NCBI GenBank assembly: GCA_022709425.1
Contig: JAKLIW010000003.1
Location: 102,293 to 166,292 of the forward strand
Length of the DNA stretch: 64,000 nt
Reading direction: 5' to 3'
Source of the DNA: a bacterium
Lineage (GTDB): Bacteria; UBP6; UBA1177; JAKLFG01
The notes below the pieces were generated by a model. The model was not told where the DNA came from, searched no databases, and saw only the letters and a list, made by a program, of their open reading frames with translations. Of this stretch, positions 11,901 through 46,771 are shown piece after piece. Numbering within the stretch: position 1 is the first letter of the stretch; each line of letters begins with the position of its first letter. The position numbers and the translations under genes were made by a program.

Positions 11901-12482
11901 ATGTCCCGATTGATGAAGGTAAAGGGTATGAAAAAAGGTGACAACAGCTGGATGTATGCCAACACACCATCGAATGATGCTCGCTTTCTCTTGGGGCAAC
12001 AGCTTAAAAAAACAGGACCAACCCTCATTTGTATAGGGGTAAATCCCAGCACTGCCGAACCAGATGATTTGGATCCTACTCTAGCGCGGGTTCGTAATAG
12101 GGCGGATGACCGAGATTATGCACGATGGGTCATGTTGAATTTATATCCGCAGCGCGCCACCGATCCGAATGATATGGATGAGGTCTGCAATATAGGTTGG
12201 CGCAGGGAAAACCTGCAGAAGATCGCGGCTCTGATAGACAGCCTTCTGCTCAAAGGGCCAATAGATATTTGGTGTGCATGGGGGAACCTCATCGACAAGA
12301 GGCCCTACTTGAGATCCTGCTTGAGAGAGATAGTTGAACTCCTGTTACATCGACCCGGACTTCATTTTCTCACTTTTGGTAAAGAGACAAAAAAAGGCAA
12401 TCCGCACCACCCACTTTTTCTAAAGAGAAAACTGAAGGCCAAAAAACTATCAAGGGAAGATATCAATCGTTTTTTGATATAA
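11901..12482 (+). CDS. DUF1643-family protein
   Basis: ICIGVNPSTAEPDDLDPTLARVRN...WVMLNLYPQRATDPNDM matches the NPSTA / DPT / NL..R.TdP hallmark blocks of DUF1643 as I remember them. Confidence 0.6.
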   Translation: MSRLMKVKGMKKGDNSWMYANTPSNDARFLLGQQLKKTGPTLICIGVNPSTAEPDDLDPTLARVRNRADDRDYARWVMLNLYPQRATDPNDMDEVCNIGWRRENLQKIAALIDSLLLKGPIDIWCAWGNLIDKRPYLRSCLREIVELLLHRPGLHFLTFGKETKKGNPHHPLFLKRKLKAKKLSREDINRFLI

Positions 12483-26008: not shown

Positions 26009-29000
26009 GCAATGCGTTCATCAAGCTTTCCTATGATAAATTGAACGCAGCGGTCGCTTGTCTGCTGTGCCCGCGTATCGAAACAATCCTGGGTGACCGT
26101 GGCCCAGGCCACTGCATGCGGATCACCGATCTCGATGACGATGTAATGGAGTCTGTCTGCAAGGAACTGCGCCGAACCCGACCCGACGGAAACATCTTTA
26201 TCCTTGGTAGCCATGATCAGGAAAGTCTGCCTTTCCGAGTCACTTCCACCAAACTGGTGGAATTGCGCAACCCGGACTCGAACGGCGAGTTGCGTCAGCC
26301 TTTGATGGTCTTTATACCCACCTCGCTTCGCACCAGCGCCGAGGATTCTTTCGGCGTGGCGACCTTCGAGGAGCTGGCCTTCACCGGTATCTATGAGAAC
26401 CTTATCGACTCACTACTAGATCGGATCCCGACAACACTGGTCGGCCCTGTTCGCGACCTTTTTGGTTTCCTCACAGAGGAGGAATGGCTGTTTGCCGATG
26501 ATGTTTCTCGTGTGCGGTACCTGCTCACTGCGCTCGAAAACGGGATTGATGGAGAAACCCTCGGGGCCAGCCTGTATGAATTGACTTTGATCCCGGACTT
26601 CAAGCTTTTTGCCGATCCTGGCATGCTCAGGGGCAAGATTCGCCGTAACCTCGACAGCGTCCGTAGTTTGATGATTTCTCACAAGTCGGTTCGTGGACGC
26701 ATTGCCGGTTTGGGCCTCAGCGACAAGACCTTGGAATCGCGCCTATTCGCCTACTTTGAAAAACACGATGTCCATGAGCCGGAATCCTGGACCTTGCCCA
26801 TCGCGACTGATAAGAGCTGGTGGAGCATTTCTTTCGACAAATGGACATTCCGGGGAGAGCTTTACCTAGACAAGGTTCTGCTGACGGTGCTGGGAACCGA
26901 CTTGCCGGTTGTTCAGAAGGAAGAGACCGATGACCAGCTTTCCGGCCTGATTGGACAACAGGTTCTGATCCCGAATGATCGCCGCAAAATGAATGTGGAG
27001 TTCGAGGTCAATCCTCACCCGGGCAAGGTCAGCGGTCTTGACCATTTTACGGTTCAGATCGTTTCGCAGAATGATGGCCCGGTAGGAAAATCAAAAAAGG
27101 TTAAAGCGTGGACGCCGAATCGCCTTCAATGTACGACTAATCTTGCAAAGCTCAATAAGGTTGAATTCGAGGAAGGATGGCATTTCATTCGTATCTTGCC
27201 TTGGTCGGCAGACGGCGATCAAATTCCGCTGGAAGCGGGTTCTTCCTCCGAAGGTGCTAAACACTCCTATGAAAGCGAACCATTCTATGTCCTGCCCGGT
27301 GGCAACATTGAGGAGGAACCGCCGCAAAGAGCCATACCCATTGAACAGAGCCTAGAGCATGCACGTTTCCGGTTGCAACTGACGGCATTGGGCGATGAGC
27401 GCGATCCGGAAGACATCGCTATCAGTAGTGTCGTTTGGGCCGAAGGCAACAGTTCGAAGAAGGTCTCCCGACATGAAACCTTGCTTGCGAAATTTGGTCG
27501 CGAGGGCGCTTTTCAGATACCGCTTTCGCGCATGCTCAAAACCATTGAGCAACGCATCTTGGCTGAGCCCAAGCATCCATCAGGCTGGCGAATGCAGATC
27601 AATCTGGATACCCCTGAGTTGCCATCTGAGGTTGGTCTCACGCTGCCTTCTTCTGCCGCAATGGCCTCTTTTTTGGCCGCTCGCGAAGAGTTTTTTGCAG
27701 CGGTACGCAAAGACACTGCCGAGTTGATTATGCAAGGGCTTTCGTTCCGAGACTCGGAAAAGGAATGCCTTGCCTATGCGGAAGGGTACCTTGATCTAGT
27801 AAGAAATCTTATCCGCCAAGCCGAGACGACTTCTGGTGCCGACCGCCAACAACACCTACAATCGCTCAGGAATGTGTTGGCCGTTGATTCCATTCATGTC
27901 GTCTTAACTGATTTCCGCGGAAGACACCGGGAGGCTGTTTTGGTCTCTCCAACCCATCCGCTCCGTGCTTTGTGGCTAAGCAGCTGGGTCACCCTGGGTA
28001 AGGATTGGATCGAGAAGATCAAATCAGGCGGAAAGGATTACATTCCTCATGTTCGTTCTGCGCTCCTAGAACGCCTTGCGCCATCTGCCTATCCGGTCGG
28101 TATTCCAGTCGAGGATGGCCGAATCTTCACTCCGGTCGACAACCTGAATGCGTTCTGGGCACTTTACGCCCCAACAACCGAGGAAAATTCCAGAGGCCTG
28201 ATGGCGGAAATCTGTTCAGCGCTTGGCTTGGCCGAGCCCTCTGCGGCGGGAACAGATGTTTGCGGAAAGGTCATTGCGGACAAGATCGAGCGCTATCTCT
28301 CCCAGCATCCGTATGTGCGAGAGTTATCACTAAACATCTTCAACCCGGGCGCCGCATCAGTAATTGCGGATGCCCTGCTCTCGCTCCAGCAAAAGCGTGA
28401 GCATGCCGATTTGCGCTATGACATCCGGCTCTTCACATCGGACCCCGATTCGCCAGTTTTAGGTGAGGCACTTGAATCGATGGTCCGTCCCGGGGCAACA
28501 GTAAACGAGGCCGCTGACGCGTTTGCGATTTCGACGGGCAGCCATCTGTTCTCCAAGCTGAACTTGGCTAAGCACGCGCTGAATGAGTTTCGTTCAAATT
28601 CCAAGGAATTCCCGGCACACATCAGCGTTCTTCTGGATGTGTTTCCCGCCGAGGAGATATCCATTACAGAGAAGCCGATGGGCGTGACCCCATTGCATGG
28701 GCTGATACAGGACTTTGACACTGACTTCGTTGATGACGATACGGGTACCTTCTGGAACAAGCGGCCGATTGTCGGACGATCCCTCGCTGCGGATAGCCAC
28801 GCGACATGCTTTGATTTGTTGTCGTCCCTGAGCCGAAACCTCAGTTTCGCTACCTCAGCGATTGCTGCTTCTGGTGCCAGTTTTAAATCTGTGCCCGTCA
28901 TAACCCTTGGCCTCGATGCCGTTCAACGAGAACTAATCTACGAAGTGCACCAGATTAGCGATTGGGTGTTCACCATCGACCGAAATATGGGGATTGAATT

Positions 29001-33830: not shown

Positions 33831-36800
33831 TTAACACCCGCTGTCGTAGCAGTCGCCGTTATCCCAAGCGGTACAGGTGCTATTACAGATTGCCGAACCG
33901 CTGTCCCATTGTGTCGGATCGACCATCGCGCAATCTTCGCTGTTCCCGTCGCAGAACTCGCCCGGTTCGATGATGCCGTTGCCGCAGATAGCGGGAACGG
34001 TGTTATTCGTCGAAAGCTTTACCTTGTTCCCGTCAGGGATGTAGACCCAACCGTTGTACAGGTAGTTCTCCTGCATTTCGCGCATGTCGCCATCCAACTC
34101 AGTGTAGTCGATGTAGGTATTCGGCAGACCGGCGAAGCGATACTCATACCCGTCACAGGAGAGGTAGAACGCGCCGTGGTCGGTCGTCAGCTCTCCGGTC
34201 GAGCAGTACGGATAGTCCCACGCCTTCCGTGTTGCAAGGTTATCGACATCGCGGATATCGATGCCCGATGACCAGAAGTCGTCCCAGTACATCGCGATCT
34301 CGCCGTTCGTAATGGCGAAGTCCATGGTACTGCCGATGTTGACATAGGCTACGCGGGCAAAGTTTTCGGGGTTGCGGATGTTAATGCCGTTGTCGTCGCC
34401 GACATAGAGATTGCCGTTATAGAGTTGGATGCGGTACTGGTAGTTGTACGGCGTGCTGTAGAAGGAACCGATGATCGAAAGGGTGTCGGGATTGACGGTA
34501 TTGAGTTTGTAGATGCCGCCGCTGGTCGCCGCGTACATGATATCGCCGTCGGCCACTTCGAGGTCGTAGACGGTCTTGTTGGTGGTAAAGGTGCTCTTGA
34601 GAACCATCGCGTTCGGGTCGCTGATGTCGTAAACCTTGATTGCACTGCCGGTACCGACATAGAGGCGATCCCCCTTGCCTGCTACGCTGTAAACGGTCGA
34701 GCCGATCGAGTACTGCTTGTACCACGGGTGGGTGAATGGGGTGCAGATATTTCCGATAAAGGTACCCCCTTCAAGAATATCATCATTGTCATTCAAGCAA
34801 TAACTTGGTGGCGCGGTAATCTTTTGCTTAATGGTTATAGTTCTCTCAGCAAGAACGTCGCTTGCTCTATCAATCGTCAGCATGGATGTCGTTGTTTCCT
34901 CAGATTGTGGTTGGGTAATGAATTTAATCGTTTCGTCATCAATGATGGTAAATGTTTTATAAAGATCTATTTGCAGATTCTCTGCCAGCTGCTCAAGCCC
35001 ACCACTGGGAGAATAACGCCAGACATCGTTGATTGGCGTCGGGATTCCATTGTACAGATTGAAGCCTCCTAGCAGATAGATAACCCCATCGGGAGTTGTT
35101 GATATGTTGACAAAATTGCGAGGCAATGGCTTGGCGACCATGGGAATAACGTCAAATGTTGTAGTGGCAGAGTTGAATCTATGAAGTGTCAGCCCATCAA
35201 GCTCATGAGTCAAGGTATATAGTTTCGTGCCAGCTGCTATCAAATGGATAGCTCCGCTTACCTCTGGTAAAGTTCCAACATGGGTTAAAACATGGGTATA
35301 AGTTGTGGGCATTGTGAATTGCAGAGCCGATGAATCGCGTTGCTGTACGGAATAAAGGCTAGCGCCAATAGACACATAGAGCCTATCGTTTAATATCGCT
35401 CCACTCATTAGGTGTGCGCTTGCTGGGAGTGCAAAGGATCCGGCATATGCGGTGTCGCTGGGGCGAGCATCATTCTGGTACCGCAGTTCGACATATCTTT
35501 CATCTTCATGTTCGTAAAAAAGAATTGTCTCTCCAGCATATTGCAGGCCAAACTTTAGATTGGTTTGAGGAATGATTCTCTGGTTTTTTTCCAATTCTTG
35601 CGTGATACTGTTATACCGCCATAGGTCGAAACGGTCATCAGCATAAGGATATCCAGGTGTTGCCTCAGGCATAGTGTAGGTGATTTCAAAAGGAAGGCGA
35701 GGGGGAACGATAAAAACCTGATCGGGCGCGTAACTCATTCCTATCGCATAGGAAAGGGGCGTGCCGGAGAAGCTGTCTCGTGTTGAACGGGCAAAGATTC
35801 TGTCGTTCTTGAAGCAGGCGCTATTTTGTGTTTTGCCACCTTCGCCATCATCTACGAGGTCGTTGGCTTCTGTGCATTTCACGGTACCTTGAGGACCACC
35901 CGAAACGGCATAAGTGATAAAGGGATCGAGCGAAGGGTTATAAGTTGGCTCCTCATTAGCGACATGTTCTTCATATAAATCCAAGTATTCTCCTTCTAAG
36001 TCTGGTTTCCAGTCCCAAAGATGCGTTTGGTCCGGAGATTCTTCGTAGATTCCCTTTTGGCTTACGATATTATTTCCGGTAGGTACTTGCCATGATGGAT
36101 CAGTCCCCTGTCTGAGTGGCATAGGGTCGCTTCCGTGACTGTACGCGAAATCGCTAGAAAAGAGGAAGTGAATTGAAGATTCGTTGCTCGTTGTGCAGTA
36201 ACCGCCAGTACCCCAACGATTGCTATAATCACTTTGAGGCACCCAACAATAGCGAAGAATACTGGGATGCGCTATACTGTTGTAGACTGGCGCTCCTTGA
36301 GATATGACTCCTGAGTCATGATCTATTGCGACAAGACTGTTTATTTCACGAGATTGTACCTGACCACCATAAACGATTTCGTTCTTTGGAGAGCCATTAA
36401 CAAAACGAGAAGAAATAACAGTATGATGCCATCCGTCTCCCACAAGATTGTCAGGGCCTATCCCTTTGGGAGTATCACAGGCATCTCCGGTACCGTCCAA
36501 ATCATGATCGGGCTGCCATGTCCATTTTGAGAAAGATAAAAAAAGGTTAGGAGATGTTTTCAGATAACCGTATTTGAAAGTCTTTTTGTTGTATCGTGCT
36601 CCGCCCTCGTTTTCATTGGTACAGTGGGGCAGGGAAAGATCTCCATTTTGAAAGTAAGAAACTCCTGTTCTACATTCCCCCTGAATAAGTTCACTGTTCC
36701 AATCTTCAGCTTCCACAAAGGGGTTCCCCTTTTGTGGACAATTATCGCAGATGTCAGCGATACCATCGGTATCCGAGTCGGCAATGGGAGTTCCAAACTG

Positions 36801-38900
36801 ATCTATCCAATTACTGATGGCATACAGAGTAGGGCAAGGATCGACACAGTTCGGAACACCGTCGTTGTCGGCATCTCCAGAACTACCGCCCATCGGACAT
36901 GGATCACATTCATCAAGTATTCCGTCATTATCAAGGTCGCTGTATTCATAATAAGGAATGTTCTCTTCCACGTCATATCTATGTGGGCATAGGTCGCAGA
37001 CATTGCCCGCACCATCAAGATCATAGTCTTCCTGTGTAGAATTGTAGGTAGAGGGACAATTATCTATTAGGTCGGGCACTCCATCGTAGTCAGTGTCAAT
37101 GCTAACCGCCACCTCGGTATTCCAATCGAAGGTAAGCCTTCCCGTAGCAAGGTCGGCCGAACTTATCAGCCCTATATGCACCTTCTCCATCATCCAATAC
37201 TCCGATAACCTTTGACCCCGTGGCGCATTAATGCATCCGTTGACAGGATTATCTTTATCGCAATTACCGTAGGGACGGAATGAGAAAATGTATCGCGTAG
37301 TTGGATCCAATGTCGGAGACGGAAGCAACAGATATGTATCCTTGCCTTGATCTCTATCGCCATGACTATTGCGAATGATGTAGTAAATATCTTGGAAACC
37401 GTCACCGTTGGTGTCGCCTCCGCGTAGATAACCAACGATGTCAACGATGTGTCCTCTTATTCCAAAGTTATAGATTTGTGGTTGCCCCTGATTGTCGAAA
37501 TCCAAAGCCTCTGGATCAAGATTCCACGAACAGTCTTCCATTTTGTCGATGTTAGGCTTATCAAGACATGCCCCAATGTTTTGACCCGTTTCAGGCACAA
37601 TTTTGTAGTGTGCTTTATCTTGTGCGTGAATAAGCCTAAAATGAATATTGAGATCTTCTATTGATTGCGGCACCGTATTGTCGTGACGCAAATGCTCATT
37701 CCATGGCATCGGAATAATTACAACTCGGCCTCGGTTTATGGTCGTCATTATCTTTCTGTCCACCTCATACCAGTTTACCTGAAGCCTATCGAGAACCCAC
37801 TCGCCATTCGCATCTTTGTGATAGCCGCCGAAGGCTTCGCCTTGATCACCCATAGGATTTCCTCCCCACGGGCAAGCGGCCACACATAATGGGTGTTCGA
37901 GATCAAGATCACATGTAAACCCTTGCGGACAACTTCCGTTGTTGACGCACAATTTTCTCGGATTGTTTTTATCAACACAGTTCGGCCAAATATGGGCCAT
38001 GTACTGTTCGCTGATTTGCATTTCAGCCTTGTAGGCAGGGTAGAATCCCACTATGGGGTATGGAGCTTCCCATGCCGTTTTCACCATACAGGAGGAAGCT
38101 AAATCGTAATATAAGTTGAAATAACAATTCTCATTTGCACAATCGGAAAGATTGCCCGTACATGCAAAATACAGTTCGCTTTCGAAGGCTCCAAGCGATT
38201 GACACTCAGGGATACTTTGATATTTTTCAGCATAATGAGTAGCAGCAAACCCCAGTCGATTCCGCAACTCTTCCAAATAGGCCGTGGGACTATCTTCGCA
38301 TTCTGAAATTTCTGAGAATCCGGATTCTTTCTTCTTTCCTGGAAAGAAAGCATATGGAAATATTCTTTCCGGCAGAGACTTGTGCATTTCTCCTCCGCCC
38401 AAATAATCTTGAGTGTAATAACTTGCTTCTGAAAGATTGGTCGTGATGGGGCGACTCTGATCTTGTCCAATGTGCCGGAAAAGATTGTCGGGGAAACGTT
38501 GATACAACTCAATAGCCAGTAGCGATTCGAGGGAAGCATTTTCGCCGAAATCCCAGCATAGGCCAAAATCTTGTTGATTCCTCACCGGACCAAGAAAATT
38601 TTCGGGGCAGTGAAGAAGCGAGACCATCGCGTACTCACTCCCATTGAGCGACACCTGTAGGGGGAAAAGATCACATTGCTCTGTCACTGTGAGATCGTAG
38701 GGTGTTCGCTGTGGCACGGCGATATCGAACGAGTGTTGTAGGAGGTAAAGATTTTGCAATTCGGGAGACAGAAGAGGAATGGTCTCTTCCCCGTACACAT
38801 GAGTCACGAAGAAGAATATTATCAAGAAAAATCCCTTGGGTATTTTCCTTCCCAAAAGCAAATTGCCAATTCGACCCATGATACGATTAGAACTCTTCAT
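33831..38900 (-). CDS. Giant secreted protein (1689 aa) with thrombospondin type-3-like Ca-binding repeats and beta-propeller (LVIVD-like) repeats
   Basis: Signal peptide. Repeated DxDxDGxxDxxDNCP blocks (DTDYDGVPDLIDNCP, DLDNDGILDECDPCP, DADNDGVPNCVDPCP, DSDTDGIADICDNCP). Propeller-like repeats toward the C-terminus. GC is about 45%, against more than 60% for the flanks. Confidence 0.7.
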   Translation of the reverse strand: MKSSNRIMGRIGNLLLGRKIPKGFFLIIFFFVTHVYGEETIPLLSPELQNLYLLQHSFDIAVPQRTPYDLTVTEQCDLFPLQVSLNGSEYAMVSLLHCPENFLGPVRNQQDFGLCWDFGENASLESLLAIELYQRFPDNLFRHIGQDQSRPITTNLSEASYYTQDYLGGGEMHKSLPERIFPYAFFPGKKKESGFSEISECEDSPTAYLEELRNRLGFAATHYAEKYQSIPECQSLGAFESELYFACTGNLSDCANENCYFNLYYDLASSCMVKTAWEAPYPIVGFYPAYKAEMQISEQYMAHIWPNCVDKNNPRKLCVNNGSCPQGFTCDLDLEHPLCVAACPWGGNPMGDQGEAFGGYHKDANGEWVLDRLQVNWYEVDRKIMTTINRGRVVIIPMPWNEHLRHDNTVPQSIEDLNIHFRLIHAQDKAHYKIVPETGQNIGACLDKPNIDKMEDCSWNLDPEALDFDNQGQPQIYNFGIRGHIVDIVGYLRGGDTNGDGFQDIYYIIRNSHGDRDQGKDTYLLLPSPTLDPTTRYIFSFRPYGNCDKDNPVNGCINAPRGQRLSEYWMMEKVHIGLISSADLATGRLTFDWNTEVAVSIDTDYDGVPDLIDNCPSTYNSTQEDYDLDGAGNVCDLCPHRYDVEENIPYYEYSDLDNDGILDECDPCPMGGSSGDADNDGVPNCVDPCPTLYAISNWIDQFGTPIADSDTDGIADICDNCPQKGNPFVEAEDWNSELIQGECRTGVSYFQNGDLSLPHCTNENEGGARYNKKTFKYGYLKTSPNLFLSFSKWTWQPDHDLDGTGDACDTPKGIGPDNLVGDGWHHTVISSRFVNGSPKNEIVYGGQVQSREINSLVAIDHDSGVISQGAPVYNSIAHPSILRYCWVPQSDYSNRWGTGGYCTTSNESSIHFLFSSDFAYSHGSDPMPLRQGTDPSWQVPTGNNIVSQKGIYEESPDQTHLWDWKPDLEGEYLDLYEEHVANEEPTYNPSLDPFITYAVSGGPQGTVKCTEANDLVDDGEGGKTQNSACFKNDRIFARSTRDSFSGTPLSYAIGMSYAPDQVFIVPPRLPFEITYTMPEATPGYPYADDRFDLWRYNSITQELEKNQRIIPQTNLKFGLQYAGETILFYEHEDERYVELRYQNDARPSDTAYAGSFALPASAHLMSGAILNDRLYVSIGASLYSVQQRDSSALQFTMPTTYTHVLTHVGTLPEVSGAIHLIAAGTKLYTLTHELDGLTLHRFNSATTTFDVIPMVAKPLPRNFVNISTTPDGVIYLLGGFNLYNGIPTPINDVWRYSPSGGLEQLAENLQIDLYKTFTIIDDETIKFITQPQSEETTTSMLTIDRASDVLAERTITIKQKITAPPSYCLNDNDDILEGGTFIGNICTPFTHPWYKQYSIGSTVYSVAGKGDRLYVGTGSAIKVYDISDPNAMVLKSTFTTNKTVYDLEVADGDIMYAATSGGIYKLNTVNPDTLSIIGSFYSTPYNYQYRIQLYNGNLYVGDDNGINIRNPENFARVAYVNIGSTMDFAITNGEIAMYWDDFWSSGIDIRDVDNLATRKAWDYPYCSTGELTTDHGAFYLSCDGYEYRFAGLPNTYIDYTELDGDMREMQENYLYNGWVYIPDGNKVKLSTNNTVPAICGNGIIEPGEFCDGNSEDCAMVDPTQWDSGSAICNSTCTAWDNGDCYDSGC

Positions 38901-39266
38901 GAAGGCTCCCTCTTATTTGGGTAAGAAATACATCGCAAATTACTTTTTTCATCTATTGGGTAAGACCCCTCGCTTGGCGATTGAAGAAACAAAGCCGCAA
39001 TCAAAAACTCCCGTTCCTTGCCCTTTGAGATACCAAAAAACCCATGAAGGATTCAGGGTTTTCCAATATATTTTGTATCCTTCCGTTTTTATTTGGCTAT
39101 ATCTTTCTCTGACTGAGAGTCTGATCTCGCCTTGCTTCGGCAAGAAGACTTGCCCCCGCATCAACCCCATGCAGATACCTTCCGGCTTTTGACTAATTAC
39201 TCCCATATTAGGGATGGTTCCGCAGAAGAAATCAAGTTTTCCGTGAGAGAGGATATTACCGGTTCC

Positions 39267-40028
39267 TCACTTCTTCCCGATGGCCTTCTTCTTGCGCATA
39301 GACTCGCCCTTGATCTCGATGCGGTGAGCCGAATGGACCAGACGGTCGAGGATGGCGTCGGCGATGGTGTGGTCGCCGATCACATCGTGCCACTCCTTGA
39401 CCGGCAGTTGCGAGGTGATGATGGTGGCTTGTTTGCCGTGGCGGTCCTCGAGAAGATCAAGAAGGATCAGGCGTGCCTCACCATCGAGCGGTTGAAGACC
39501 AAAGTCATCGAGAATGAGGAGCTGCTGCTTGGCGATACGGGCGATGGCGCGGGGATAGGAGTTGTCGGCTTTCGACATCTTGAGATCGGCAAGGAGCCGG
39601 TTGGTGTTGGCGTAGAGTACCCGGTACTGCTTGAGGCAGGCATGGTGACCGATCGCCGAGGCGACATAGCTCTTGCCGGCGCCGGTCGCCCCGGTGACGA
39701 TGATGTTCTCGGCCTGATCGATGAATGTGCAGGCGGCCAGACGGGCCAATTGGGTCTTGTCGATGTTGCGGGCGGCCGAGAAGTCGAGTTCGGCCACCAA
39801 TGCCTGATACCGGAACTTCGCCTGCTTGATACGGCGGGCCTGTGTCTTCTGCTGCCGGTACAGCCACTCGGCCTCCACCAACATGTTCACGATCTCGTCG
39901 TTGGTGTAGCGGGCCCGGGTCTCCTGCGCGGTGTTCCATGCGTCGCGCATGCCGAACAGCTTGAGTTCGTTCATCTTAGCGATGGTGGTGCTCATCTGGT
40001 GCCTCCTAGCGGTAATCGTTTCGTACAT
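39267..40028 (-). CDS. istB: IS21-family helper ATPase IstB
   Basis: 253 aa. Walker A NIIVTGATGAGKSY. DnaA/IstB-like AAA. Overlaps the istA stop. Confidence 0.9.
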   Translation of the reverse strand: MYETITARRHQMSTTIAKMNELKLFGMRDAWNTAQETRARYTNDEIVNMLVEAEWLYRQQKTQARRIKQAKFRYQALVAELDFSAARNIDKTQLARLAACTFIDQAENIIVTGATGAGKSYVASAIGHHACLKQYRVLYANTNRLLADLKMSKADNSYPRAIARIAKQQLLILDDFGLQPLDGEARLILLDLLEDRHGKQATIITSQLPVKEWHDVIGDHTIADAILDRLVHSAHRIEIKGESMRKKKAIGKK

Positions 40029-41541
40029 TATGGTGCAACGGCAAGGCGTACTGTGTCGGGGCGGGCGTCAGGCGGTCGAGGTCTTTTTTCAGGATTGACT
40101 CGATGCTGTGGTAGCTGTAGTTGTCGAAGAGGGCGGCCCGCTTGCAGGCATTGTTGAGTCGGTACGGGCCGTACCGGTTCTCCTTGGCCAGAGCGAGAAT
40201 GCCCAAACAGGCGCGAAACGCGATGTGGGGATGCGGTCTGCTCGCTATCAGCGCCTTGAGGTATGCCGCCGTTTCGGGACCGATGGTCGCACCCTTGGCG
40301 ACGATGCGTTCCTCGCTCCATTCGGTGAGTTCGGGTTGGTGTTTCGGCGGGAGGTGGGCCGGGATCAGTTGGTACCGTTCCCCGGTGCGGACATGGTAGG
40401 CGATGCGACGATTGTTGTGGATGACCTCAAGGTGTCGGGCGCTGTAGACGACCTCCACGGTCTTGCCGATATAGGGATAGGGAACGCTGTAAAAGTTCAG
40501 GTCTTCGCTTGCCTGTATGAAACAGAACTTGCTCACCTTCTTCGTCTCGTAGCGCTTCGGTTCATAGCGGTCTATCGGGAGCGGCCTCAGAGTTTCCTTC
40601 TCTCCCGTCTCGAAGAGGTCGCGTCTACTCTCGCTCCTGTTGGTCAGCGGCGCGTCGTTCAGGGCGTCAACGAGTTCTCTGATGCGCCGGTTAAGGGTCT
40701 CAAGGTCGAAGAAGGTCTCATTCCTGAGTAGAGCGTAGACATTCCGGTAGACGATCTTCACCATGTTCTCGACATGGGCTTTGTCCTTGGGAGCGGCGGT
40801 TCTCGTCGGATGCGCCGAGGTGCCGTAGTGGGTACAGAAGTCCTCGAAGGTGCGGTTCAATTCTGGTTCGTACCGGTGCGCCTTGGTGACGGCGCTTTTC
40901 ATGTTGTCGGGTACGATGAGGGAGGGGACCCCGCCCAGGTACTCGAGGGCGTTCTCCAAGCCGTAAAGAAAATGGGCCGTCTTCTGGCTCTGGACCGCCT
41001 CCGCGTAGCCGAGGCCGCTGTAGGGAAGAACGGCGACCAGTACCTCGGCTTCCCATATCTCGCCCGTGTCGCGGTCGACCAGCGGCAGTTTGCCGCCCGC
41101 GAAGTCCACGAACAGCTTGTCGCCCGCCTTGTGCCGGAGGTAAACCGAGCTTTCCATCTGCCGCAGGGCGCGTTTCAGGTGGGCACAGAACTGGGTGTAG
41201 GCGTACCCATCGGCATGGCGTTCCCGGTACTCCACCCACAGGCGTTTCTTGTCCACGCCACGCTTGCCGAGTTCCTTTTCCATGTAGGGGATCTCTTCCA
41301 TGAGCGTCTTGAAGCGTTCCGGTTCCGCCGGACCTTTATAGAAAAGCTCCTCGAGGTCCTCATCGCTGAGTTCGAGCACCTCGGCAAGGGGGAGTTCGCT
41401 CCTGAGGAAGGCTTGGTAGTAGTTGCCGACCGTCGTCTTGCTGACATCAAGTATCCTCGCCACGCTTCGGTCGCTCCGGCCTTCCTCCAATCTCAGTTTC
41501 AGCAGTTTGCGTACTTTCATGCGGTCCTTCCTCCGGTTCAT
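40006..41541 (-). CDS. istA: IS21-family transposase IstA (HTH + DDE)
   Basis: 511 aa. N-terminal HTH (RSVARILDVSKTTVGNYY). Integrase-core region. Typical IstA length and organisation. Confidence 0.9.
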   Translation of the reverse strand: MNRRKDRMKVRKLLKLRLEEGRSDRSVARILDVSKTTVGNYYQAFLRSELPLAEVLELSDEDLEELFYKGPAEPERFKTLMEEIPYMEKELGKRGVDKKRLWVEYRERHADGYAYTQFCAHLKRALRQMESSVYLRHKAGDKLFVDFAGGKLPLVDRDTGEIWEAEVLVAVLPYSGLGYAEAVQSQKTAHFLYGLENALEYLGGVPSLIVPDNMKSAVTKAHRYEPELNRTFEDFCTHYGTSAHPTRTAAPKDKAHVENMVKIVYRNVYALLRNETFFDLETLNRRIRELVDALNDAPLTNRSESRRDLFETGEKETLRPLPIDRYEPKRYETKKVSKFCFIQASEDLNFYSVPYPYIGKTVEVVYSARHLEVIHNNRRIAYHVRTGERYQLIPAHLPPKHQPELTEWSEERIVAKGATIGPETAAYLKALIASRPHPHIAFRACLGILALAKENRYGPYRLNNACKRAALFDNYSYHSIESILKKDLDRLTPAPTQYALPLHHNVRNDYR

Positions 41542-41704
41542 GCATTCCTCCGCCGTTGTTAAAAAGGCGGCGGAAGTCTAGTCCGTTTTTCTTCCTGCGC
41601 TATTTATGCTGTCTGGCTGACCCCTCAGAAGAGGGTGGCCACTTTGACCGAATTACCCGGCCAGTTTGCTCCGAATTGGCCGGTCAGTTTGGACCGAATT
41701 TTCC

Positions 41705-41788
41705 ATGGGGCCTCGGTTCGGGGATGGGGATCTCTTTCAGTTGCAGGACCTCGGGCGGTCCGTATTCGGTGTAGACGACGGCTTTCAT
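41705..41788 (-). pseudogene. 5' fragment (28 codons) of a zinc-type quinone oxidoreductase/MDR-family gene truncated by the IS21 insertion
   Basis: The reverse complement reads RBS GGAG, then ATG AAA GCC GTC GTC TAC ACC GAA TAC GGA CCG CCC GAG GTC CTG CAA CTG AAA GAG... (MKAVVYTEYGPPEVLQLKE), running straight into the IS terminus. Confidence 0.6.
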
Positions 41789-41799
41789 GCGCTCACTCC
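41744..41799 (+). repeat. Repeat A copy 1 (~55 bp: RBS plus the first ~15 codons of the oxidoreductase-like gene)
   Basis: aggacctcgggcggtccgtattcggtgtagacgacggctttcatgcgctcactcc recurs almost identically at 42986-43041. Confidence 0.7.
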
Positions 41800-41869
41800 T
41801 TTGCGGCATAGTTCACACTCGGTCTACCATGGCGGTCGCGCCGGGTGAAGTCAAGAGAAATCGGGCTGG

Positions 41870-41967
41870 CGCATCACCGCGTCTTTCTCACCAAAGGCCA
41901 GTACCGCAAGTTGGAGAAGAAGGGAAATGAAAAGTTGTGTTAATATAGATGTGACCCCGTTTGGCCC
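41870..41967 (+). repeat. Repeat B copy 1 (~95 bp: gcgcatcaccgcgtcttTctcaccaaaggccagtaccgcaagttggagaagaag...tagatgtgaccccgtttggccc)
   Basis: Three copies in the window (41870, 42887, 44153). All have an identical ~50-bp core and a conserved 3' tagatgtgacccc box. Each lies downstream of a minus-strand accessory gene. Confidence 0.75.
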
Positions 41968-41997
41968 TCTACATCCCCAAAGGGCTGACCAGCGTAT

Positions 41998-42759
41998 TCA
42001 TATGTGTTTTCTAGCCCTTACCCAAAGGAATCCTTCTTGGCCGAGCGTATAAGACAAGTTTCCGGTGAGGAAAGGTAGGTATATGTTTTCCGGAGGCCCC
42101 TTCACGGCTACCCGATACGACACTATATCCAGCATATTCAGCAAATTGTTTTTGATGATTTCCTCATTCAATTGCTGAGGTTCACAAGATGTGGCCGGTT
42201 CTTCCAAATTAAAACTACCGATAAACTCTCCCCCCGGTTTCAGAACTCGAACGATTTCATGGCACATGGCGGCGAAATTATCGACATGGTCTATCGCATT
42301 CAAGGTGAACATCACATCAACAGAGTCCGATGGCAGAGGAATAACTTTCTCTGTGGATTTCAAGTAGATCATGCCGTGAGAAATGATGTTGTCCGTGAAC
42401 TCATCGGCATATCTGTCCGCAAGCACATCAATCCCGATCCGCAGAGATGCCTGCTCCGCCCAAACAAGGCTTCCGCGTGGGCCGCAACCGAAATCAGCAA
42501 CGATCTTTCCTTTGAGAAAATCGTCCGTGGATTCCCCTGCTATCGCAAGCATCAATTCCTTATAGTGGGCGTTACGAAACTTGCCTTTGTCGATTTCCAA
42601 TCTGCTTCTCCAAAAGGACAATTCGGCCGCATCCTTTGTAATAAACAACAATTCGACACCATGTCTTCTGGCCATGGCGACGAGGCTCCTTCGTGCCGGG
42701 TGATAGAGCCGTTTCAAGAATTTCGGAGAGATGCGCTTCAGAATATCTCGTAGCGACAT
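41998..42759 (-). CDS. Class I SAM-dependent methyltransferase (Methyltransf_11-like)
   Basis: 253 aa. Motif I IVADFGCGPRGSLV. Post-I acidic residue. LKPGGEFIGSFN. Confidence 0.7.
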   Translation of the reverse strand: MSLRDILKRISPKFLKRLYHPARRSLVAMARRHGVELLFITKDAAELSFWRSRLEIDKGKFRNAHYKELMLAIAGESTDDFLKGKIVADFGCGPRGSLVWAEQASLRIGIDVLADRYADEFTDNIISHGMIYLKSTEKVIPLPSDSVDVMFTLNAIDHVDNFAAMCHEIVRVLKPGGEFIGSFNLEEPATSCEPQQLNEEIIKNNLLNMLDIVSYRVAVKGPPENIYLPFLTGNLSYTLGQEGFLWVRARKHI

Positions 42760-42886
42760 GGGAACTTCCTCTTAAGCGGTGGTATTTCATCCGTCGGCGG
42801 AACGGCCTATGCTAACCGATAGCTCTCCATTAGTCAAGGTCGATCCGGCAACTCTTCTGTCGTCCGGCATCTTGCGTCCCATAATC

Positions 42887-42982
42887 GCATCATCGCGTCT
42901 TCCTCACCAAAGGCCAGTACCGCAAGTTGGAGAAGAAAGGGGAAAAAAGTTGCGTTAATATAGATGTGACCCCGTTTGGCCC
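42887..42982 (+). repeat. Repeat B copy 2
   Basis: cgcatcatcgcgtcttcctcaccaaaggccagtaccgcaagttggagaagaaagg...tagatgtgaccccgtttggcccc. Repeat A copy 2 follows it directly. Confidence 0.75.
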
Positions 42983-42985
42983 CCC

Positions 42986-43041
42986 AGGACATCGGGCGGT
43001 CCGTATTCGGTGTAGACGACGGCTTTCATGCGCTCACTCCT
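42986..43041 (+). repeat. Repeat A copy 2 (a partial duplicate of the oxidoreductase 5' end, fused to the NTase gene stop)
   Basis: caggacatcgggcggtccgtattcggtgtagacgacggctttcatgcgctcactcc. The reverse complement gives MKAVVYTEYGPPDVL and then diverges into repeat B. Confidence 0.7.
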
Positions 43042-43564
43042 TCATTTTACTGAATTCATTGAACTTCGCGGTCATTCCTTCGGCCTTCGACCAGCGTTCT
43101 ATCTCCTTCATATCGACCGGATGGGTCCGCGCCACCATCAGTGCCTGTTCCAGCGACTGCCGGTCGTTCCAGAAATAGAATGCCGCCAGCCGGTCCATCA
43201 CGCAGTAGGTCGGCGTCAGCAGTTTCAGATAGCCGCTCCGCGTCGTTATCTCGTTGAATTCCCGCACCGGTTTGTCTCCCACCGAGAGCGGTGGAGAGGG
43301 AAACTCGACGAACAGTTCGGTGTCGGGGTGGGTGAAGTAGCGCCCTTTGTTCTTCGCGAATCCGATGGCGGCGATTGCCTCTTCGATCTCCTTCATCGAT
43401 GCCGACGAGATGAAATCGAGATCGTTGGAGCGGTAGCGGTTCTCGGTGTAGATGGATACCACCGCGCCGCCGGTCAGCACCGCGTCGATCCCGTTCTTTT
43501 TCAGCGCCCCGCAAACGATGAGCGCCAGATCCTTGATGGTCGTCTTTGCCGTTATCTTTTTCAT
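43034..43564 (-). CDS. Nucleotidyltransferase-fold protein (MNT-like), likely one half of an NTase/HTH pair
   Basis: 176 aa. GGAVVSIYTENRYRSNDLDFI resembles the G[GS]...D.D motif of the minimal NTase fold. 4-nt overlap with the upstream HTH gene. Confidence 0.5.
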   Translation of the reverse strand: MKKITAKTTIKDLALIVCGALKKNGIDAVLTGGAVVSIYTENRYRSNDLDFISSASMKEIEEAIAAIGFAKNKGRYFTHPDTELFVEFPSPPLSVGDKPVREFNEITTRSGYLKLLTPTYCVMDRLAAFYFWNDRQSLEQALMVARTHPVDMKEIERWSKAEGMTAKFNEFSKMKE

Positions 43565-43887
43565 GCCGGTTTTCCTCTGCGGCGCGGCCGCGTCCGGACG
43601 GTGTAGCGTTCCTGTTCCTCCGGCGTCAGGTAGTCGTACGCCTTGGCGAGGAGCGCCTTCAATTCGTTGAGGAACGGATAGCGCGGATTCCAGAGATACA
43701 GGAGCGTCCGTCCTTTTTCGGCGCTGACGAGTATCCCGGCCGTCTCGAACTTCGCCAACTGTTTCTGCACCGGAGCGAGCGCCGTCCCGAAATGCTGGGC
43801 GATGCCCCGCGCATAGCCTTCATCGAAGCGGGAGAGGTACAACAGCACCCGTTCCGCCGTTACGCTGCCGAAGAGAGGAGCCAGCAT
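43561..43887 (-). CDS. Winged-helix (ArsR/MarR-like) DNA-binding protein
   Basis: 108 aa. ERVLLYLSRFDEGYARGIAQHFGTALAPVQKQLAKFETAGILVS is a typical wHTH recognition region. Confidence 0.5.
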   Translation of the reverse strand: MLAPLFGSVTAERVLLYLSRFDEGYARGIAQHFGTALAPVQKQLAKFETAGILVSAEKGRTLLYLWNPRYPFLNELKALLAKAYDYLTPEEQERYTVRTRPRRRGKPA

Positions 43888-44152
43888 TGATGACCTCCGA
43901 AGTAGTTCACATGACCCACAATAACGGTCGTTTGGAAAGAAGTCAAGAGAAAGTTTCTGAGCGGCACTTACTTGATATTCGGCGGCGGTTGTTTTATCAT
44001 GCGCAGGTCATGGCAGGGAGATTCTCATGGTAACGAAAAGAGTAGAGGATGCGAACACGCGGTATTATATCGATCTGGACTTGAGAAAGGGGGTGATCAT
44101 CGGGTGGGATTTCGGTCAGCGGGAGCAGTTGTCTCAGGAACTGCCCGACCCG

Positions 44153-44240
44153 GCGCATCACCGCGTCTTCCTCACCAAAGGTCAGTACCGCAAGTTGGAG
44201 AAGAAGAAATCTATAAAAAATTAGATGTGACCCCAATGGT
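44153..44240 (+). repeat. Repeat B copy 3 (core conserved, with a divergent AT-rich 3' variant)
   Basis: cgcatcaccgcgtcttcctcaccaaaggtcagtaccgcaagttggagaagaag...ttagatgtgaccccaatggtcc. It lies inside the 3' end of a 65-aa ORF (44027..44224). Confidence 0.7.
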
Positions 44241-44332
44241 CCTTCCAATGGTCCATTCGAGGCGGAAAACATAACGACATGGTTTGCGGAATAGAATGTT
44301 CCTCGGTGTTAAACTGATGGAGAGAAAACACT

Positions 44333-45340
44333 ATGAAACACTTTTTATGGATGCTTGTCTTTGTAAGTGCTGTGTTCCTGCTTACCCCTGCCGTCGGCGG
44401 AGAAACAAAAAAACCAGATACTGTTAAATGGACAGAACACGCCGGGTTGCAATGGTCTGACAAATCAACCGATGCAATGCAATGGCAGGCCGGAGAGGAT
44501 TACTGTACCGCGATGGGCGGTAGACTCCCAACCATATCAGAACTGCGTAAGCTCATTATCAATTGCCCCGAATTGGAATCGGGCGGATCCTGCAAGGTAT
44601 CATCAGAAGCGCCGGTATGTCTCGAGTATGTTTGTCAGGTTCCTTCCAAAACATGCATGTGTGCATCCCGCAATGCTAGTGCCGCCACCTATTCAGCGTT
44701 AGGTGATGCTACTAACACTGCGCTCTGGTCGTCATCGTCCGATCCTTATGGCTCTAACAATGCATGGCATGTGTATTTCCCGGGCCTTTTGGCCAGCGCT
44801 AATAATAATAAGTACGACAAACACAATGTCAGGTGTGTGAAGAATATCACATCGAAAACAGGGGAGGCTGTTGTTGTCCCGGCCACTGCAAAAAAGGACA
44901 ATAATAACCCCCAACCTGAAGAAACAGCAGCTGTTAAATGGACAACTCACGCAGGGCTTGAATGGTCGCCACGGTCAGAAGAGATGATGAATTGGCAGGC
45001 CGCAAATCATTATTGTAGCTCTATTGGCGGCAGACTTCCCACCATATCAGAATTGCGTAAAATCATCATAAACTGCCCCGGTAGCACCTACGGCGGAGCC
45101 TGTAAAGTAATTTCGGAAGAACCGGTATGTCTGGATGTTAGTTGTTATGAAGATAGCAAATGCCAATGTGACGGCTCTGCCGATTCATATTCAGCGTTGA
45201 ATGATGACAAGAATGGCCATCTATGGTCATCTACGTCCCTTGTCAAATACTCCGACGCCGTATTTGTTGTCCACTTCGTCAGCGGCAGTATCTACACCCC
45301 CAATAAGTACCACAACTTCCAAGCCCGCTGTGTGAGATGA
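44333..45340 (+). CDS. Secreted protein with two DUF1566 (Lcl C-terminal-like) domains, low GC
   Basis: Signal peptide. Two repeats of VKWTEHAGLQWS...MQWQAGEDYCTAMGGRLPTISELRKLIINCP, matching the DUF1566 pattern. An AT-rich segment. Confidence 0.65.
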   Translation: MKHFLWMLVFVSAVFLLTPAVGGETKKPDTVKWTEHAGLQWSDKSTDAMQWQAGEDYCTAMGGRLPTISELRKLIINCPELESGGSCKVSSEAPVCLEYVCQVPSKTCMCASRNASAATYSALGDATNTALWSSSSDPYGSNNAWHVYFPGLLASANNNKYDKHNVRCVKNITSKTGEAVVVPATAKKDNNNPQPEETAAVKWTTHAGLEWSPRSEEMMNWQAANHYCSSIGGRLPTISELRKIIINCPGSTYGGACKVISEEPVCLDVSCYEDSKCQCDGSADSYSALNDDKNGHLWSSTSLVKYSDAVFVVHFVSGSIYTPNKYHNFQARCVR

Positions 45341-45364
45341 TCGCAGTTTGAATTTCAGATAAGT

Positions 45365-46771
45365 TTACACATACACATCGACCGCGCCGTCCTCTATCTT
45401 CTTGAGCGACGCGGCGGTCTTCTGGCGCAGTTCCTCCTGCGGGATATCGGCGAGCATCTTCCCGATGAGCGCGTCGCCCACCTTCCGGGTCTCGGGCGTC
45501 GCGTAGTTGACCAGATATTCCTTGAAACTCGTGATCGCGTTGGGCAGACAGAAATGCTTGATGAGCCCCGGCTTGGCGAGATCCATGAAATCCTGACCGG
45601 TGCGCCCGAGCCGGTAACAGCCGGTGCAGAACGACGGGATATAGCCCATCGTCGCGATATCGCGGATCACCTCTTCCAGAGAACGGTGGTCGCCCAGCGA
45701 GAACTGTTCGCCGCCCGAATCCTCGGAATAGCCGCCGGGGTTGGTGCGCGACCCGGCCGATATCTGCGAGATGCCCAGCGACAGGGCGTCGCGGCGCGTC
45801 TGGGCGTTCTCGCGCGTCGAGAGTATCATCCCGGTGTAGGGGACGGTGATGCGGAGGATGGAGATTATCTTGCGGAAATCGCGGTCGCTCACGGCGTGGG
45901 GCGGATTGAGCGATACCTCCGACCCGGTCGCCGGCTCCAAGCGCGGCACCGATATGGTGTGGACGCCGGTGCCGAACCGTTCCTCAAGGTGGTGGATGTG
46001 CTGGAGCAGCGCCATCACCTCGAACCGGTAATCCTCAAGCCCGAAGAGGATGCCGACGCCGACATCGTCGATGCCCGCTTCCATCGCGCGGTCCATCGCG
46101 GTGAGGTGGTAGAGGTAATCGGACTTGGGCCCCGACGGGTGCATCGTCTTGTAGGTATCGGCCTGATAGGTCTCCTGAAAGAGTTGGTAGGTGCCGATGC
46201 GCGCCGCTTTGAGCGTCTTGTAGCCCTCGACCGGCAGCGCGGCGATGTTGATGTTGATGCGCCGTATCTCGCCTTTCCCCATCTTGACGCTGTAGACCGT
46301 CTCTATCGCCTTGACGGTGTAGTCGAGCGCCTGCATCCCGAGCCCTTCTCCCGTGAGGAGGAGCACCCGCTTGTGTCCCTGCTGGATGAGCGACTGCGTC
46401 TCGCGGCGTATCTCGTCGAAGGTGAGCGTCCGGCGCGGTATCATCTTGTTGGTGCGGCGGAAGGCGCAGTAGAGGCAGTCGTTGTTGCAGAGGTTCGACG
46501 CGTAGAGCGGCGCGAAGAGGACCAGCCGCTTGCCGTAGATCTCTTCTTTAATGAAGCGCGCGGTGTCGGAAATGCGGGCGAGGTGGGCGTCGTCCTCGAC
46601 CATCAGCAGTCGTTCCGCCTCGGCGTAGGAGATGCCCTTCAGTTCCTTGGCGTGGGCGAGTATCTCGTCCAGTTCCTTCGCGTCGGGCGGCGTGGTGTTC
46701 TTGAGGTAATCGTAGATCCTGCCGTGGTCGATAAAACCGGTATCCATGGAAGCCTCCGTAAGAATGATCAA
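45365..46771 (-). CDS. hydG: [FeFe]-hydrogenase H-cluster maturase HydG (radical SAM, 2-iminoacetate synthase family)
   Basis: 468 aa. Radical-SAM CNNDCLYC. C-terminal CTGC-x22-C auxiliary cluster motif, which is HydG-specific and absent from ThiH. Confidence 0.85.
   Translation of the reverse strand: MIILTEASMDTGFIDHGRIYDYLKNTTPPDAKELDEILAHAKELKGISYAEAERLLMVEDDAHLARISDTARFIKEEIYGKRLVLFAPLYASNLCNNDCLYCAFRRTNKMIPRRTLTFDEIRRETQSLIQQGHKRVLLLTGEGLGMQALDYTVKAIETVYSVKMGKGEIRRININIAALPVEGYKTLKAARIGTYQLFQETYQADTYKTMHPSGPKSDYLYHLTAMDRAMEAGIDDVGVGILFGLEDYRFEVMALLQHIHHLEERFGTGVHTISVPRLEPATGSEVSLNPPHAVSDRDFRKIISILRITVPYTGMILSTRENAQTRRDALSLGISQISAGSRTNPGGYSEDSGGEQFSLGDHRSLEEVIRDIATMGYIPSFCTGCYRLGRTGQDFMDLAKPGLIKHFCLPNAITSFKEYLVNYATPETRKVGDALIGKMLADIPQEELRQKTAASLKKIEDGAVDVYV

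Follow-up and report, generated by a model that had tools for sequence, protein, structure and literature searches.

In polymorphic toxin loci, such as CDI (cdiA-CT/cdiI) and Rhs, fragments of a conserved gene are found beside alternative modules, and these are thought to be reshuffled by homologous recombination. There, a long alternative toxin domain continues the conserved fragment in frame, and a cognate immunity gene accompanies it. Chromosomal integrons, in turn, are found in some spirochaetes, for example in Treponema. The locus described here invites comparison with both. Within the window (the whole stretch of DNA analysed, 64 kb), three copies of a short repeat lie among small accessory genes, an arrangement that a first-pass annotation had likened to an integron-like cassette array or, alternatively, to a recombination hotspot or a MITE-like element. 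We consider it probable (about 60%) that two of the copies are pseudogene scars, left by repeated recombination in which one side was anchored on homology to a small gene, ORF65, and the other was joined illegitimately. On this reading, the islet is a clear but fairly ordinary case of gene-end fragments, and not an integron.

The repeat occurs as three direct copies on the plus strand, R1 (41868–41967), R2 (42884(6)–42982) and R3 (44152–44243). The 55-nt core is 91–96% identical among them; R1 and R2 share 93% identity over 99 nt, and R3 matches either one at 77–78% across ~102 nt. At ≤3 mismatches a 35-nt core has exactly three occurrences in the 64 kb, against 0.00 predicted by shuffles, and at ≤1 mismatch a 13-nt box likewise has exactly three, against 0.05 predicted, so the three-copy repeat originally claimed is real and far above the shuffle expectation. 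The same R1-R2-R3 arrangement is present in three independent assemblies (ENA ERZ27257456, JGI 3300010429 and Logan SRR4244739), and an assembly duplication, which would have undone the claim, is thereby ruled out.

What is repeated is the end of a gene. ORF65 (44027–44224, plus strand) is a small conserved gene of 65 amino acids, and the repeat corresponds to its last ~23 codons, the stop codon and 10–20 nt beyond. R3 (plus strand) lies inside the intact gene and extends through its stop to ~20 nt downstream, coding for the C-terminus ...HHRVFLTKGQYRKLEKK with a tail of type B (KKKSIKN-stop), just as had been noticed for the core of the third copy. The first-pass division of the repeat into a core, an A-rich spacer and a 3' box named pieces that do exist, but they are not separate parts: the spacer is the last five codons of ORF65, and the box TAGATGTGACCCC is its stop codon TAG followed by 10 nt. 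The C-terminus is conserved at the protein level in distant family members, and is therefore native to the gene. The core differences among the three copies are C/T transitions. A diversity-generating retroelement was considered and rejected, since these differences are not confined to adenines and no reverse transcriptase family was found in Pfam scans of ~40 ORFs spread over the window.

R1 and R2, judged from their sequence, are truncated and non-translatable, pseudogene pieces that come from a second allele of ORF65, one with a type A tail; each retains the last ~23 codons, the stop region and about 20 nt beyond. Both match ORF65 codons ~42–60 (tblastn). R1 (plus strand) starts at about codon 42, has no in-frame ATG and ends in the type A tail ...EKKGNEKLC-stop; R2 (42884–42982, plus strand) ends in the same type of tail, with a 1-nt indel, and is directly preceded by an in-frame TAA. 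The R1 core is identical to that of the intact ORF65 alleles in two related genomes (L003 and L011), and the divergence between R1 and R2 is about that of ORF65 orthologues between genomes, the two being no closer to each other. Taken together, the repeats display coding homology, loss of start or frame, varied truncation and, in some copies, decay, as pseudogene fragments do. R1 adjoins the native upstream (promoter) region of a qor-like dehydrogenase gene, and this left junction is also present in a related genome (L007), from which the R1 remnant appears to be older than the divergence of the two genomes.

The left edge of the islet is formed by an IS21-family element (39210–41705, minus strand; IstB_IS21 E 1.8e-67, with rve and Mu-transpos_C_2) carrying IstB (39267–40028) and IstA (40006–41541); its end was placed where the qor homology stops, and its left end is approximate. 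This element cuts the gene for a zinc-dependent dehydrogenase (qor-like), of which the first 28 codons are left as qor' (41705–41791, minus strand; tblastn with the L013 qor), and for which the intact L007 orthologue has Pfam matches to ADH_N/ADH_zinc_N. The repeat D4a (41744–41801) falls at the start of qor'. Between R1 and R2 there is a gene for a SAM-dependent methyltransferase (41998–42759, minus strand; Pfam Methyltransf_11 E 5.5e-10) that is low in GC (48.5% for the cassette) and has its own promoter-like site at 42837–42809. Beyond R2, the qor start recurs as a 58-nt duplicate (D4b, 42985–43042, minus strand; ribosome-binding site plus 15 codons, 98% identical to 41744–41801), which supplies the last two codons and the stop of an NTase-like gene, whose L008 orthologue can be aligned just to residue 174 of 176. 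Such filler at this junction shows illegitimate joining.

The NTase-like protein (43034–43564, minus strand; 176 aa) is followed in the islet by a putative winged-helix protein (43561–43887, minus strand; 108 aa), and the two genes are predicted to be co-transcribed; an orthologous pair occurs in L008 in another context. A divergent promoter region (43888–44026), the first 80 nt of which are homologous to the region upstream of the L008 winged-helix gene, has promoter-like sites both ways: TTGACT-17-TATTGT (43946–43918) leftward for the winged-helix gene, and TTGATA-17-TATCAT (43972–44000) rightward for ORF65. Downstream of ORF65, the variable gene in this genome encodes a two-domain DUF1566/Lcl_C secreted protein (44333–45340, plus strand; Pfam E 1.5e-23) with an internal duplication and low GC; in the other genomes this place is taken by different genes. 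The conserved right-hand boundary, by synteny, is hydG (45365–46771, minus strand). The enclosed cassettes have 48–49% GC, compared to ~62% in the flanking hyd genes. Pfam thus confirms the methyltransferase and DUF1566 gene calls made at first sight, whereas the calls of a nucleotidyltransferase and a winged-helix protein found compatible but weak, sub-threshold matches (DUF2204 at E 1.3e-3 for the former; DUF7342, DUF2250 and ArsR-like HTH for the latter). Each copy of the repeat had also been placed immediately downstream of a minus-strand accessory gene. This is true of R1, which directly follows the methyltransferase gene, but not of R2, which is parted from the NTase-like gene by the qor duplicate, or of R3, which lies within plus-strand ORF65 and upstream of the plus-strand DUF1566 gene.

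The ORF65 islet, located between the qor-like gene and hydG, is a hypervariable accessory-gene region. In a comparison of the window with five other genome contexts (one of the related genomes being labelled a Spirochaetales MAG), the islet content was different in all six, while hydG, hydE and hydF remained syntenic. ORF65 is the only constant within it. Four of the related genomes have partial 3' copies of the gene (L003 6417–6478, L007 5637–5589, L011 8826–8878 and L013 4794–4759), and the genes beside these copies differ: a 128-aa secreted protein, KilA-N, DUF1566 and DUF1847. Left truncation points fall at five places across the genomes, at about codons 40, 42, 43, 47 and 53, and right ends between 7 and ~25 nt beyond the stop; two partial copies retain only the 5' part, and identity has fallen to ~80% in the decayed L011 remnant. 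In scans of sequence collections, every match to the repeat either lay at an orthologous islet or was the ORF65-type gene itself. This comparison of cassette content supports two of the initial ideas, that the locus is a recombination hotspot and that the first two copies are left over from the 3' end of ORF65. Look-ups of strain variants of this species by exact protein returned only the same arrangement, or contigs ending at the IS21 or D4 repeats; all contigs of the species were alike, with no intermediates or within-population polymorphism of the islet, which weighs against the recombination mechanism proposed below.

ORF65 belongs to a family of 129 clusters at 50% identity, with lengths of 56–100 aa. 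A profile search gave no Pfam, NCBIfam or PDB-sequence family match, and no relative was found in the viral contigs searched. The AF2 model (pLDDT 82.6) has no match in the PDB with E<1 by Foldseek. Several family members have a stop codon that overlaps, or closely precedes, an unrelated downstream gene. At the loci of four distant homologues (L006, L010, L017 and L018), self-duplicates of the gene end were not found. Silent-cassette antigenic variation was rejected as a reading, since ORF65 has no signal peptide and the alternative tails are just 5–13 residues long.

How did fragments of ORF65 come to lie between these genes? The anatomy of the junctions suggests a mechanism. Being the lone shared sequence within the islet, ORF65 would act as a homology anchor for general (RecA-type) recombination, the partner being incoming or neighbouring DNA that contains ORF65. 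Candidate events are the integration of circularised fragments by a single crossover, unequal crossing-over between ORF65 copies, and a homologous join on one side combined with an illegitimate one on the other. Each event would leave a partial ORF65 copy beside the new module, such as the methyltransferase module or the qor'-NTase-wHTH module. Neither a dedicated site nor a dedicated recombinase would take part, and the repeats would be by-products that, once in place, could promote further deletion or duplication. In L003 the order is an intact gene (ORF68), the 128-aa cargo gene and then a 3' fragment, exactly that expected from a single crossover of a circle, and a direct duplicate of the gene's 3' end likewise bounds an insert in the window, as R1-MTase-R2. 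However, the left limits of R1 and R2 are only 2 nt apart and their right limits are identical, which independent illegitimate events do not predict; the two would need a shared origin, for example in an older R-X-R array. Against the scar reading, too, an 11-nt box, GATGTGACCC, is retained in three tail variants in which the preceding 14–25 nt differ, and this could hint at a constrained site. Synonymous change affects 7–14% of codons in ORF65 versus 15–22% in hydG, about half, which would fit gene flow but also constraint at the nucleotide level.

Could the remnants be older than the cassettes and irrelevant to them? An ancestor may have had a tandem array of several full ORF65 paralogues, each with a divergent neighbour, in which unrelated deletions and insertions truncated all copies but one, and ORF65 homology would then have had no causal part in cassette gain. 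The apparently old R1 junction with the qor promoter, common to the window and L007, is consistent with such passive decay, as are the 7% difference between R1 and R2, the occurrence of type A tail remnants in two genomes (the window and L011; the L007 remnant, which shares the R1 left junction, is tailless) and the leftward promoters with a TTGACT -35 that adjoin ORF65 or its remnants in three cases. Decay alone, however, does not account for an islet that varies from genome to genome yet always breaks within or just after ORF65, it leaves the structure in L003 unexplained, and the low synonymous divergence of ORF65 relative to hydG suggests that exchange is continuing. We regard it as rather unlikely. 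A true site-specific cassette system, integron-like or resembling Xer/dif modules, with the core or the GATGTGACCC box (or both) as its site and a recombinase outside the window, is a good deal more doubtful. Single-gene modules do lie between direct repeats in two genomes (R1-MTase-R2 here and Ra-128aa-Rb in L003), the near-identical limits of R1 and R2 and the conserved box beside a variable spacer are what such a system might produce, and the integrons of Treponema count in its favor. But the integron-like array failed every test applied. Folded as single-stranded DNA on both strands, the three copies reach -8 to -14.5 kcal/mol (z -1.7 to +1.6 relative to shuffles); R1 and R2 do not improve on shuffled sequence (z +0.5 to +1.6), and R3 does so only weakly (z -1.2 and -1.7). 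A regular-expression search for R''/R' pairs (RYYYAAC-N35-140-GTTRRRY) found none on either strand of 41500–45500, in agreement with the early remark that no attC-like palindrome was visible. The absence of an integrase also held among ~40 ORFs, spread over the window, that were scanned with Pfam: none is a tyrosine or serine recombinase (Phage_integrase, resolvase), the sole transposase-type matches being IS21 IstA/IstB. A dif-like core (CATAA-N6-TTATG, from a 28-bp site with two 11-bp arms and a 6-bp spacer; ≤2 mismatches), which may not be that of the host, occurs eight times in the window (15 expected) and not once at the repeats. The enclosed genes are in mixed orientation with promoter-like sites of their own (methyltransferase and wHTH-NTase on the minus strand, ORF65 and DUF1566 on the plus), and the repeat boundaries vary from copy to copy and from genome to genome.

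Two further proposals treat the repeat as an element in its own right. It might be a functional cis element that is put to use repeatedly after minus-strand accessory genes, for example as a terminator, insulator or small RNA, as the position of R1 and R2 3' of such genes and the identity of the R1 core to the intact L003 and L011 alleles would allow; yet no Rfam match was obtained in 38500–46000 at E≤1, there is no stable fold or terminator-like site at the repeats, R3 and the remnants in other genomes are differently positioned, and that of L011 has decayed, making this proposal very improbable. The MITE-like element (or assembly artefact), to which a short, multi-copy repeat in an accessory region lends itself, is effectively refuted: the repeat ends have no terminal inverted repeats or target duplications, the copies are restricted to this islet in this and related genomes, they differ by 7–22% with unique DNA in between and the same layout in independent assemblies, and they correspond to the C-terminal end that is conserved in a protein family. 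Also improbable is the suggestion that ORF65 and its 3' end move together with small modules as a portable "landing pad", allowing their capture, excision as circles and re-insertion. This could be done by host recombination alone, or by an unrecognised recombinase reading the core plus the GATGTGACCC box; signs of it could be how closely the R1 and R2 limits agree, how the box is conserved beside a variable spacer and how little ORF65 has diverged at synonymous sites.

If the scar reading is true, one small conserved gene in a variable islet is a recurrent breakpoint of gene gain and loss, and its fragments can mimic a cassette array, which calls for caution in assigning integrons or MITEs by eye. 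The islet marks a hotspot beside hydGEF in digester-type spirochaete-like genomes, and a by-product of the analysis is the small uncharacterised ORF65 protein family, possibly worth separate attention. A landing pad, if real, would give uncultured spirochaete-like anaerobes an integron-like cassette economy that needs neither attC nor IntI.

How, then, does the islet compare to known systems? As in integron cassette arrays, short direct repeats separate single accessory-gene modules, the content varies between strains, and the cassette genes are of TA-like and methyltransferase types. Unlike an integron (attC plus IntI, with attI and Pc adjacent and cassettes that are mostly promoterless and co-oriented), the islet has no attC palindrome, R''/R' cores, integrase, attI or fixed crossover point, its modules are mixed in orientation with their own promoter-like sites, and its repeat is the coding sequence of a gene. 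It also resembles the integrative islands that accrete in tandem where a tRNA or protein gene ends, between attL and attR duplicates of its 3' end, in that partial 3'-end duplicates bracket foreign DNA (as in L003). Here, however, no integrase is found within or at the edges of any module, the modules measure 0.4–1.3 kb, the boundaries are not constant as those of att sites are, and the fragments in the window lie upstream, not downstream, of the intact gene; nor is the islet a tRNA-linked island, since a scan of the 64-kb window gave no tRNA or tmRNA. With the orphan modules of CDI and Rhs loci it shares conserved gene fragments that adjoin alternative downstream modules, but in ORF65 only 5–13 tail codons differ, and the neighbours are unrelated genes, transcribed on their own and often from the opposite strand. 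Homology-facilitated illegitimate recombination, or Campbell-type single-crossover integration, is a general mechanism and not a family of elements, and is one that we only infer here; the islet is like its products in having one junction in shared sequence and the other at non-homologous points with little or no homology, the 58-nt qor piece as filler DNA, and an anchor that is present in duplicate.

The repeat is present in the window as three direct copies on the forward strand, R1 (41868-41967), R2 (42884-42982) and R3 (44152-44243). This number is confirmed by a 35-nt core (<=3 mismatches) and by the box TAGATGTGACCCC (<=1 mismatch), each of which occurs exactly three times in 64 kb, with ~0 occurrences predicted from shuffled sequence. 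Identity among the copies is 91-96% over a 55-nt core and 93% between R1 and R2 over 99 nt; either of these matches R3 at only 77-78% over ~102 nt, the drop being due to a different tail beyond ...GAGAAGAA. An assembly duplication, which the first-pass annotation had entertained, is ruled out by this 7-22% divergence and by the identical layout of contigs from other assemblies (ENA ERZ27257456, JGI 3300010429). One Logan contig ends within the repeat adjoining the copies. Directly after the R3 box lies a 12-nt tandem duplication, CCAATGGTCCTT / CCAATGGTCCAT (44233-44256).

What, then, is the repeat? R3 is the end of ORF65, a 65-aa gene at 44027-44224. Orthologues in related genomes end in ...KLEKKK(S/T/A)(I/A)K(N/I)*, followed by TAGATGTGACC(CC), and the "3' box" of the original description is therefore the stop codon plus ~10 nt, while its "A-rich spacer" corresponds to the five final codons. 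Even distant family members retain the C-terminal motif HRVFLTKGQYxKL in their proteins, and this portion is native to ORF65 rather than an inserted element. R1 and R2 carry an alternative tail, type A (GGGAAATGAAAAGTTGTGTTAATATAGATGTGACCCCGTTTGGCCC), which differs from the type B tail of R3. They are untranslatable ORF65 fragments beginning at about codons 42-43: R1 has no in-frame ATG, and R2 is immediately preceded by a TAA in the frame of ORF65 and carries a 1-nt indel in its tail.

ORF65 belongs to a family of unannotated small proteins (129 clusters at 50% identity), all stand-alone and 56-100 aa long. The family has no match among Pfam, NCBIfam or PDB sequences, and no relatives were found in viral contigs. 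In the AF2 model (pLDDT 82.6), which matches no PDB fold, a beta-hairpin is accompanied by a third strand, formed by residues 44-49 within the repeat, and by a helix at the C-terminus. For several members, the stop of the ORF65 homologue lies within or shortly before an unrelated gene, encoding for example an HD-domain protein (locus L006), a GNAT protein (L018) or secreted proteins (L003, L008), which suggests that a small partner gene upstream is combined with cargo that can be exchanged. This layout is a TA-like or leader-gene arrangement.

In the window, the islet between the qor-like zinc dehydrogenase gene and hydG begins at an IS21-family element (IstB 39267-40028, IstA 40006-41541, by Pfam), which cuts the minus-strand qor-like gene after its first 28 codons; element and gene start together span 39210-41791. 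The rest of that gene is absent from the window, and the insertion therefore went together with a deletion or rearrangement by which the islet and the left-hand island became adjacent. The native qor upstream region follows, and then R1, a low-GC SAM methyltransferase gene with its own promoter-like site (41998-42759, minus strand), R2, and a 58-nt duplicate of the qor RBS and first 15 codons (42985-43042, 98% identical to 41744-41801), which looks like filler DNA. Next come minus-strand NTase-like and putative wHTH genes (sub-threshold Pfam support only), a divergent promoter region, ORF65 with R3, a two-domain DUF1566/Lcl_C gene (Pfam), and hydG, hydE and hydF. The last two codons and stop of the NTase-like gene are supplied by the qor fragment, and alignment with the L008 orthologue stops at residue 174/176; this junction is therefore illegitimate.

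The DUF1566/Lcl_C gene has an internal tandem duplication (44409-44740 versus 44919-45238, 67% nucleotide identity) giving two lectin-like domains; its versions in related genomes are single-domain and lie upstream of ORF65 instead of downstream. A motif, GAAGTCAAGAGAAA, recurs beside ORF65 or its remnants (window 41847-41860 and 43939-43952; L013 ~4800-4830), upstream of qor, wHTH and DUF1847 genes; its reverse complement includes TTGACT, a hexamer resembling the -35 element of promoters that point leftward. Immediately left of the IS21 element, a 1689-aa, low-GC (~45-47%) ORF with thrombospondin type-3 repeats (33831-38900, minus strand) probably encodes a giant secreted or surface protein of foreign origin. 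Positions 1-33000 hold a defence-island-like run that includes a WYL/WCX regulator (5392-6342), an AAA ATPase (6455-8113), DUF1643 (11901-12482), an HNH nuclease (13648-14574), an N6_Mtase+HSDR_N protein (16655-18772), a 1384-aa NERD and double protein-kinase protein (20181-24335), and 470-, 558- and 1820-aa ORFs without a Pfam match (within 18769-31467).

Related loci were recovered from genomes and metagenome contigs with a degenerate-codon pattern for FLTKGQYxKLEKK and exact-protein look-ups. Their HydG proteins are 85-95% identical in amino acids, and one contig is labelled uncultured Spirochaetales MAG. Wherever the right flank was recovered (L003, L007/L012, L008, L013), hydG is kept, as are hydE and hydF where the contig reaches; ORF65 is present in all of these, and every other islet gene varies. 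L003 reads serpin, ORF68 (its ORF65 counterpart), a 128-aa secreted protein, a 3' ORF65 fragment, a HATPase_c gene and hydG; L007 has qor with its promoter region, a 5' part of the repeat, KilA-N, ORF65 and hydG. In L008, qor is followed by GNAT, OMP, MTase, NTase, wHTH, DUF1566, ORF65, a 193-aa secreted protein and hydG, and in L013 by MTase, YhcG/DUF1016, DUF1566, ORF65, DUF1847, a 5' part of the repeat, a 258-aa ORF and hydG. L011 carries MTase, a decayed 3' fragment (with a type A tail more decayed than in R1 and R2), DUF1566, ORF65 and a 213-aa ORF, and L019 has YhcG and ORF65 before a set of other genes. The islet thus repeatedly contains partial ORF65 ends, which supports the initial suggestions of gene-end remnants and, with the differing islet content, of a recombination hotspot. 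The R1/qor-promoter junction is common to the window and L007, and the R1 fragment thus seems to have arisen before these two genomes diverged. In L007, at 4651-4700 (minus strand), the KilA-N gene just upstream of ORF65 ends in ...VKKLEKKEKV*, and its DNA there (AAGTTGGAGAAAAAAGA) is similar to the end of the ORF65 core, a similarity that may reflect one more recombination scar or be due to chance.

The integron-like cassette array and MITE-like element raised at first, as well as Xer-module and DGR identities, failed on their defining features. Tested for attC-like folding as single-stranded DNA, R1 and R2 gave z of +0.5 to +1.6 and R3 of -1.2 and -1.7, none notably better than shuffles (energies reproduced in a second computation). 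No RYYYAAC...GTTRRRY pair occurs on either strand of 41500-45500, no dif-like core at any copy, no Rfam match in 38500-46000 and no tRNA in the window. Among ~40 ORFs spread across the window, Pfam detected neither a tyrosine or serine recombinase nor a reverse transcriptase, the sole transposase being that of IS21. The enclosed genes do not all face the same way, and MTase, wHTH and ORF65 each come with a promoter-like site. The repeat lacks terminal inverted repeats and has no further copies in the window.

The nearly equal limits of R1 and R2 and the 11-nt GATGTGACCC kept beside three different spacers leave a small probability for site-specific recombination. Across the loci, the limits are not constant: fragments begin at about codons 40, 42, 43, 47 and 53, two remnants hold only the 5' part, stopping at ...CAGTACCGC or ...CCAGTA, and the block conserved past the stop ends 7 to ~25 nt downstream. 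The near-equal limits of R1 and R2 call for a common origin, such as an older R-X-R array, and not for two separate breaks. A purely passive array of decayed paralogues is also unlikely, if less so than site-specific recombination.

Recombination within ORF65 is the favored explanation. As the only sequence common to the islet versions, ORF65 would be where recombination between versions or tandem copies resolves. If the chromosome recombined by one crossover with a circularised piece of DNA (the 3' part of ORF65 plus cargo), the product would be an intact gene, cargo and a 3' fragment, which is exactly the structure of L003; the same crossover within an existing fragment would leave cargo between two fragments, as in R1-MTase-R2. 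The remaining junctions would be illegitimate (qor-promoter/R1, with possible GGCG microhomology; R2/qor-codon-16; qor-RBS/NTase). The 7% by which R1 and R2 differ equals the divergence of ORF65 orthologues between genomes. Low GC suggests that the MTase and DUF1566 modules came from elsewhere. Synonymous changes between genomes affect 7-14% of ORF65 codons versus 15-22% in hydG (small counts), which fits a more recent exchange of the islet. The evidence supports R1 and R2 as scars made of gene fragments within an accessory islet that is hypervariable, a feature of a known kind of which this is a new example.
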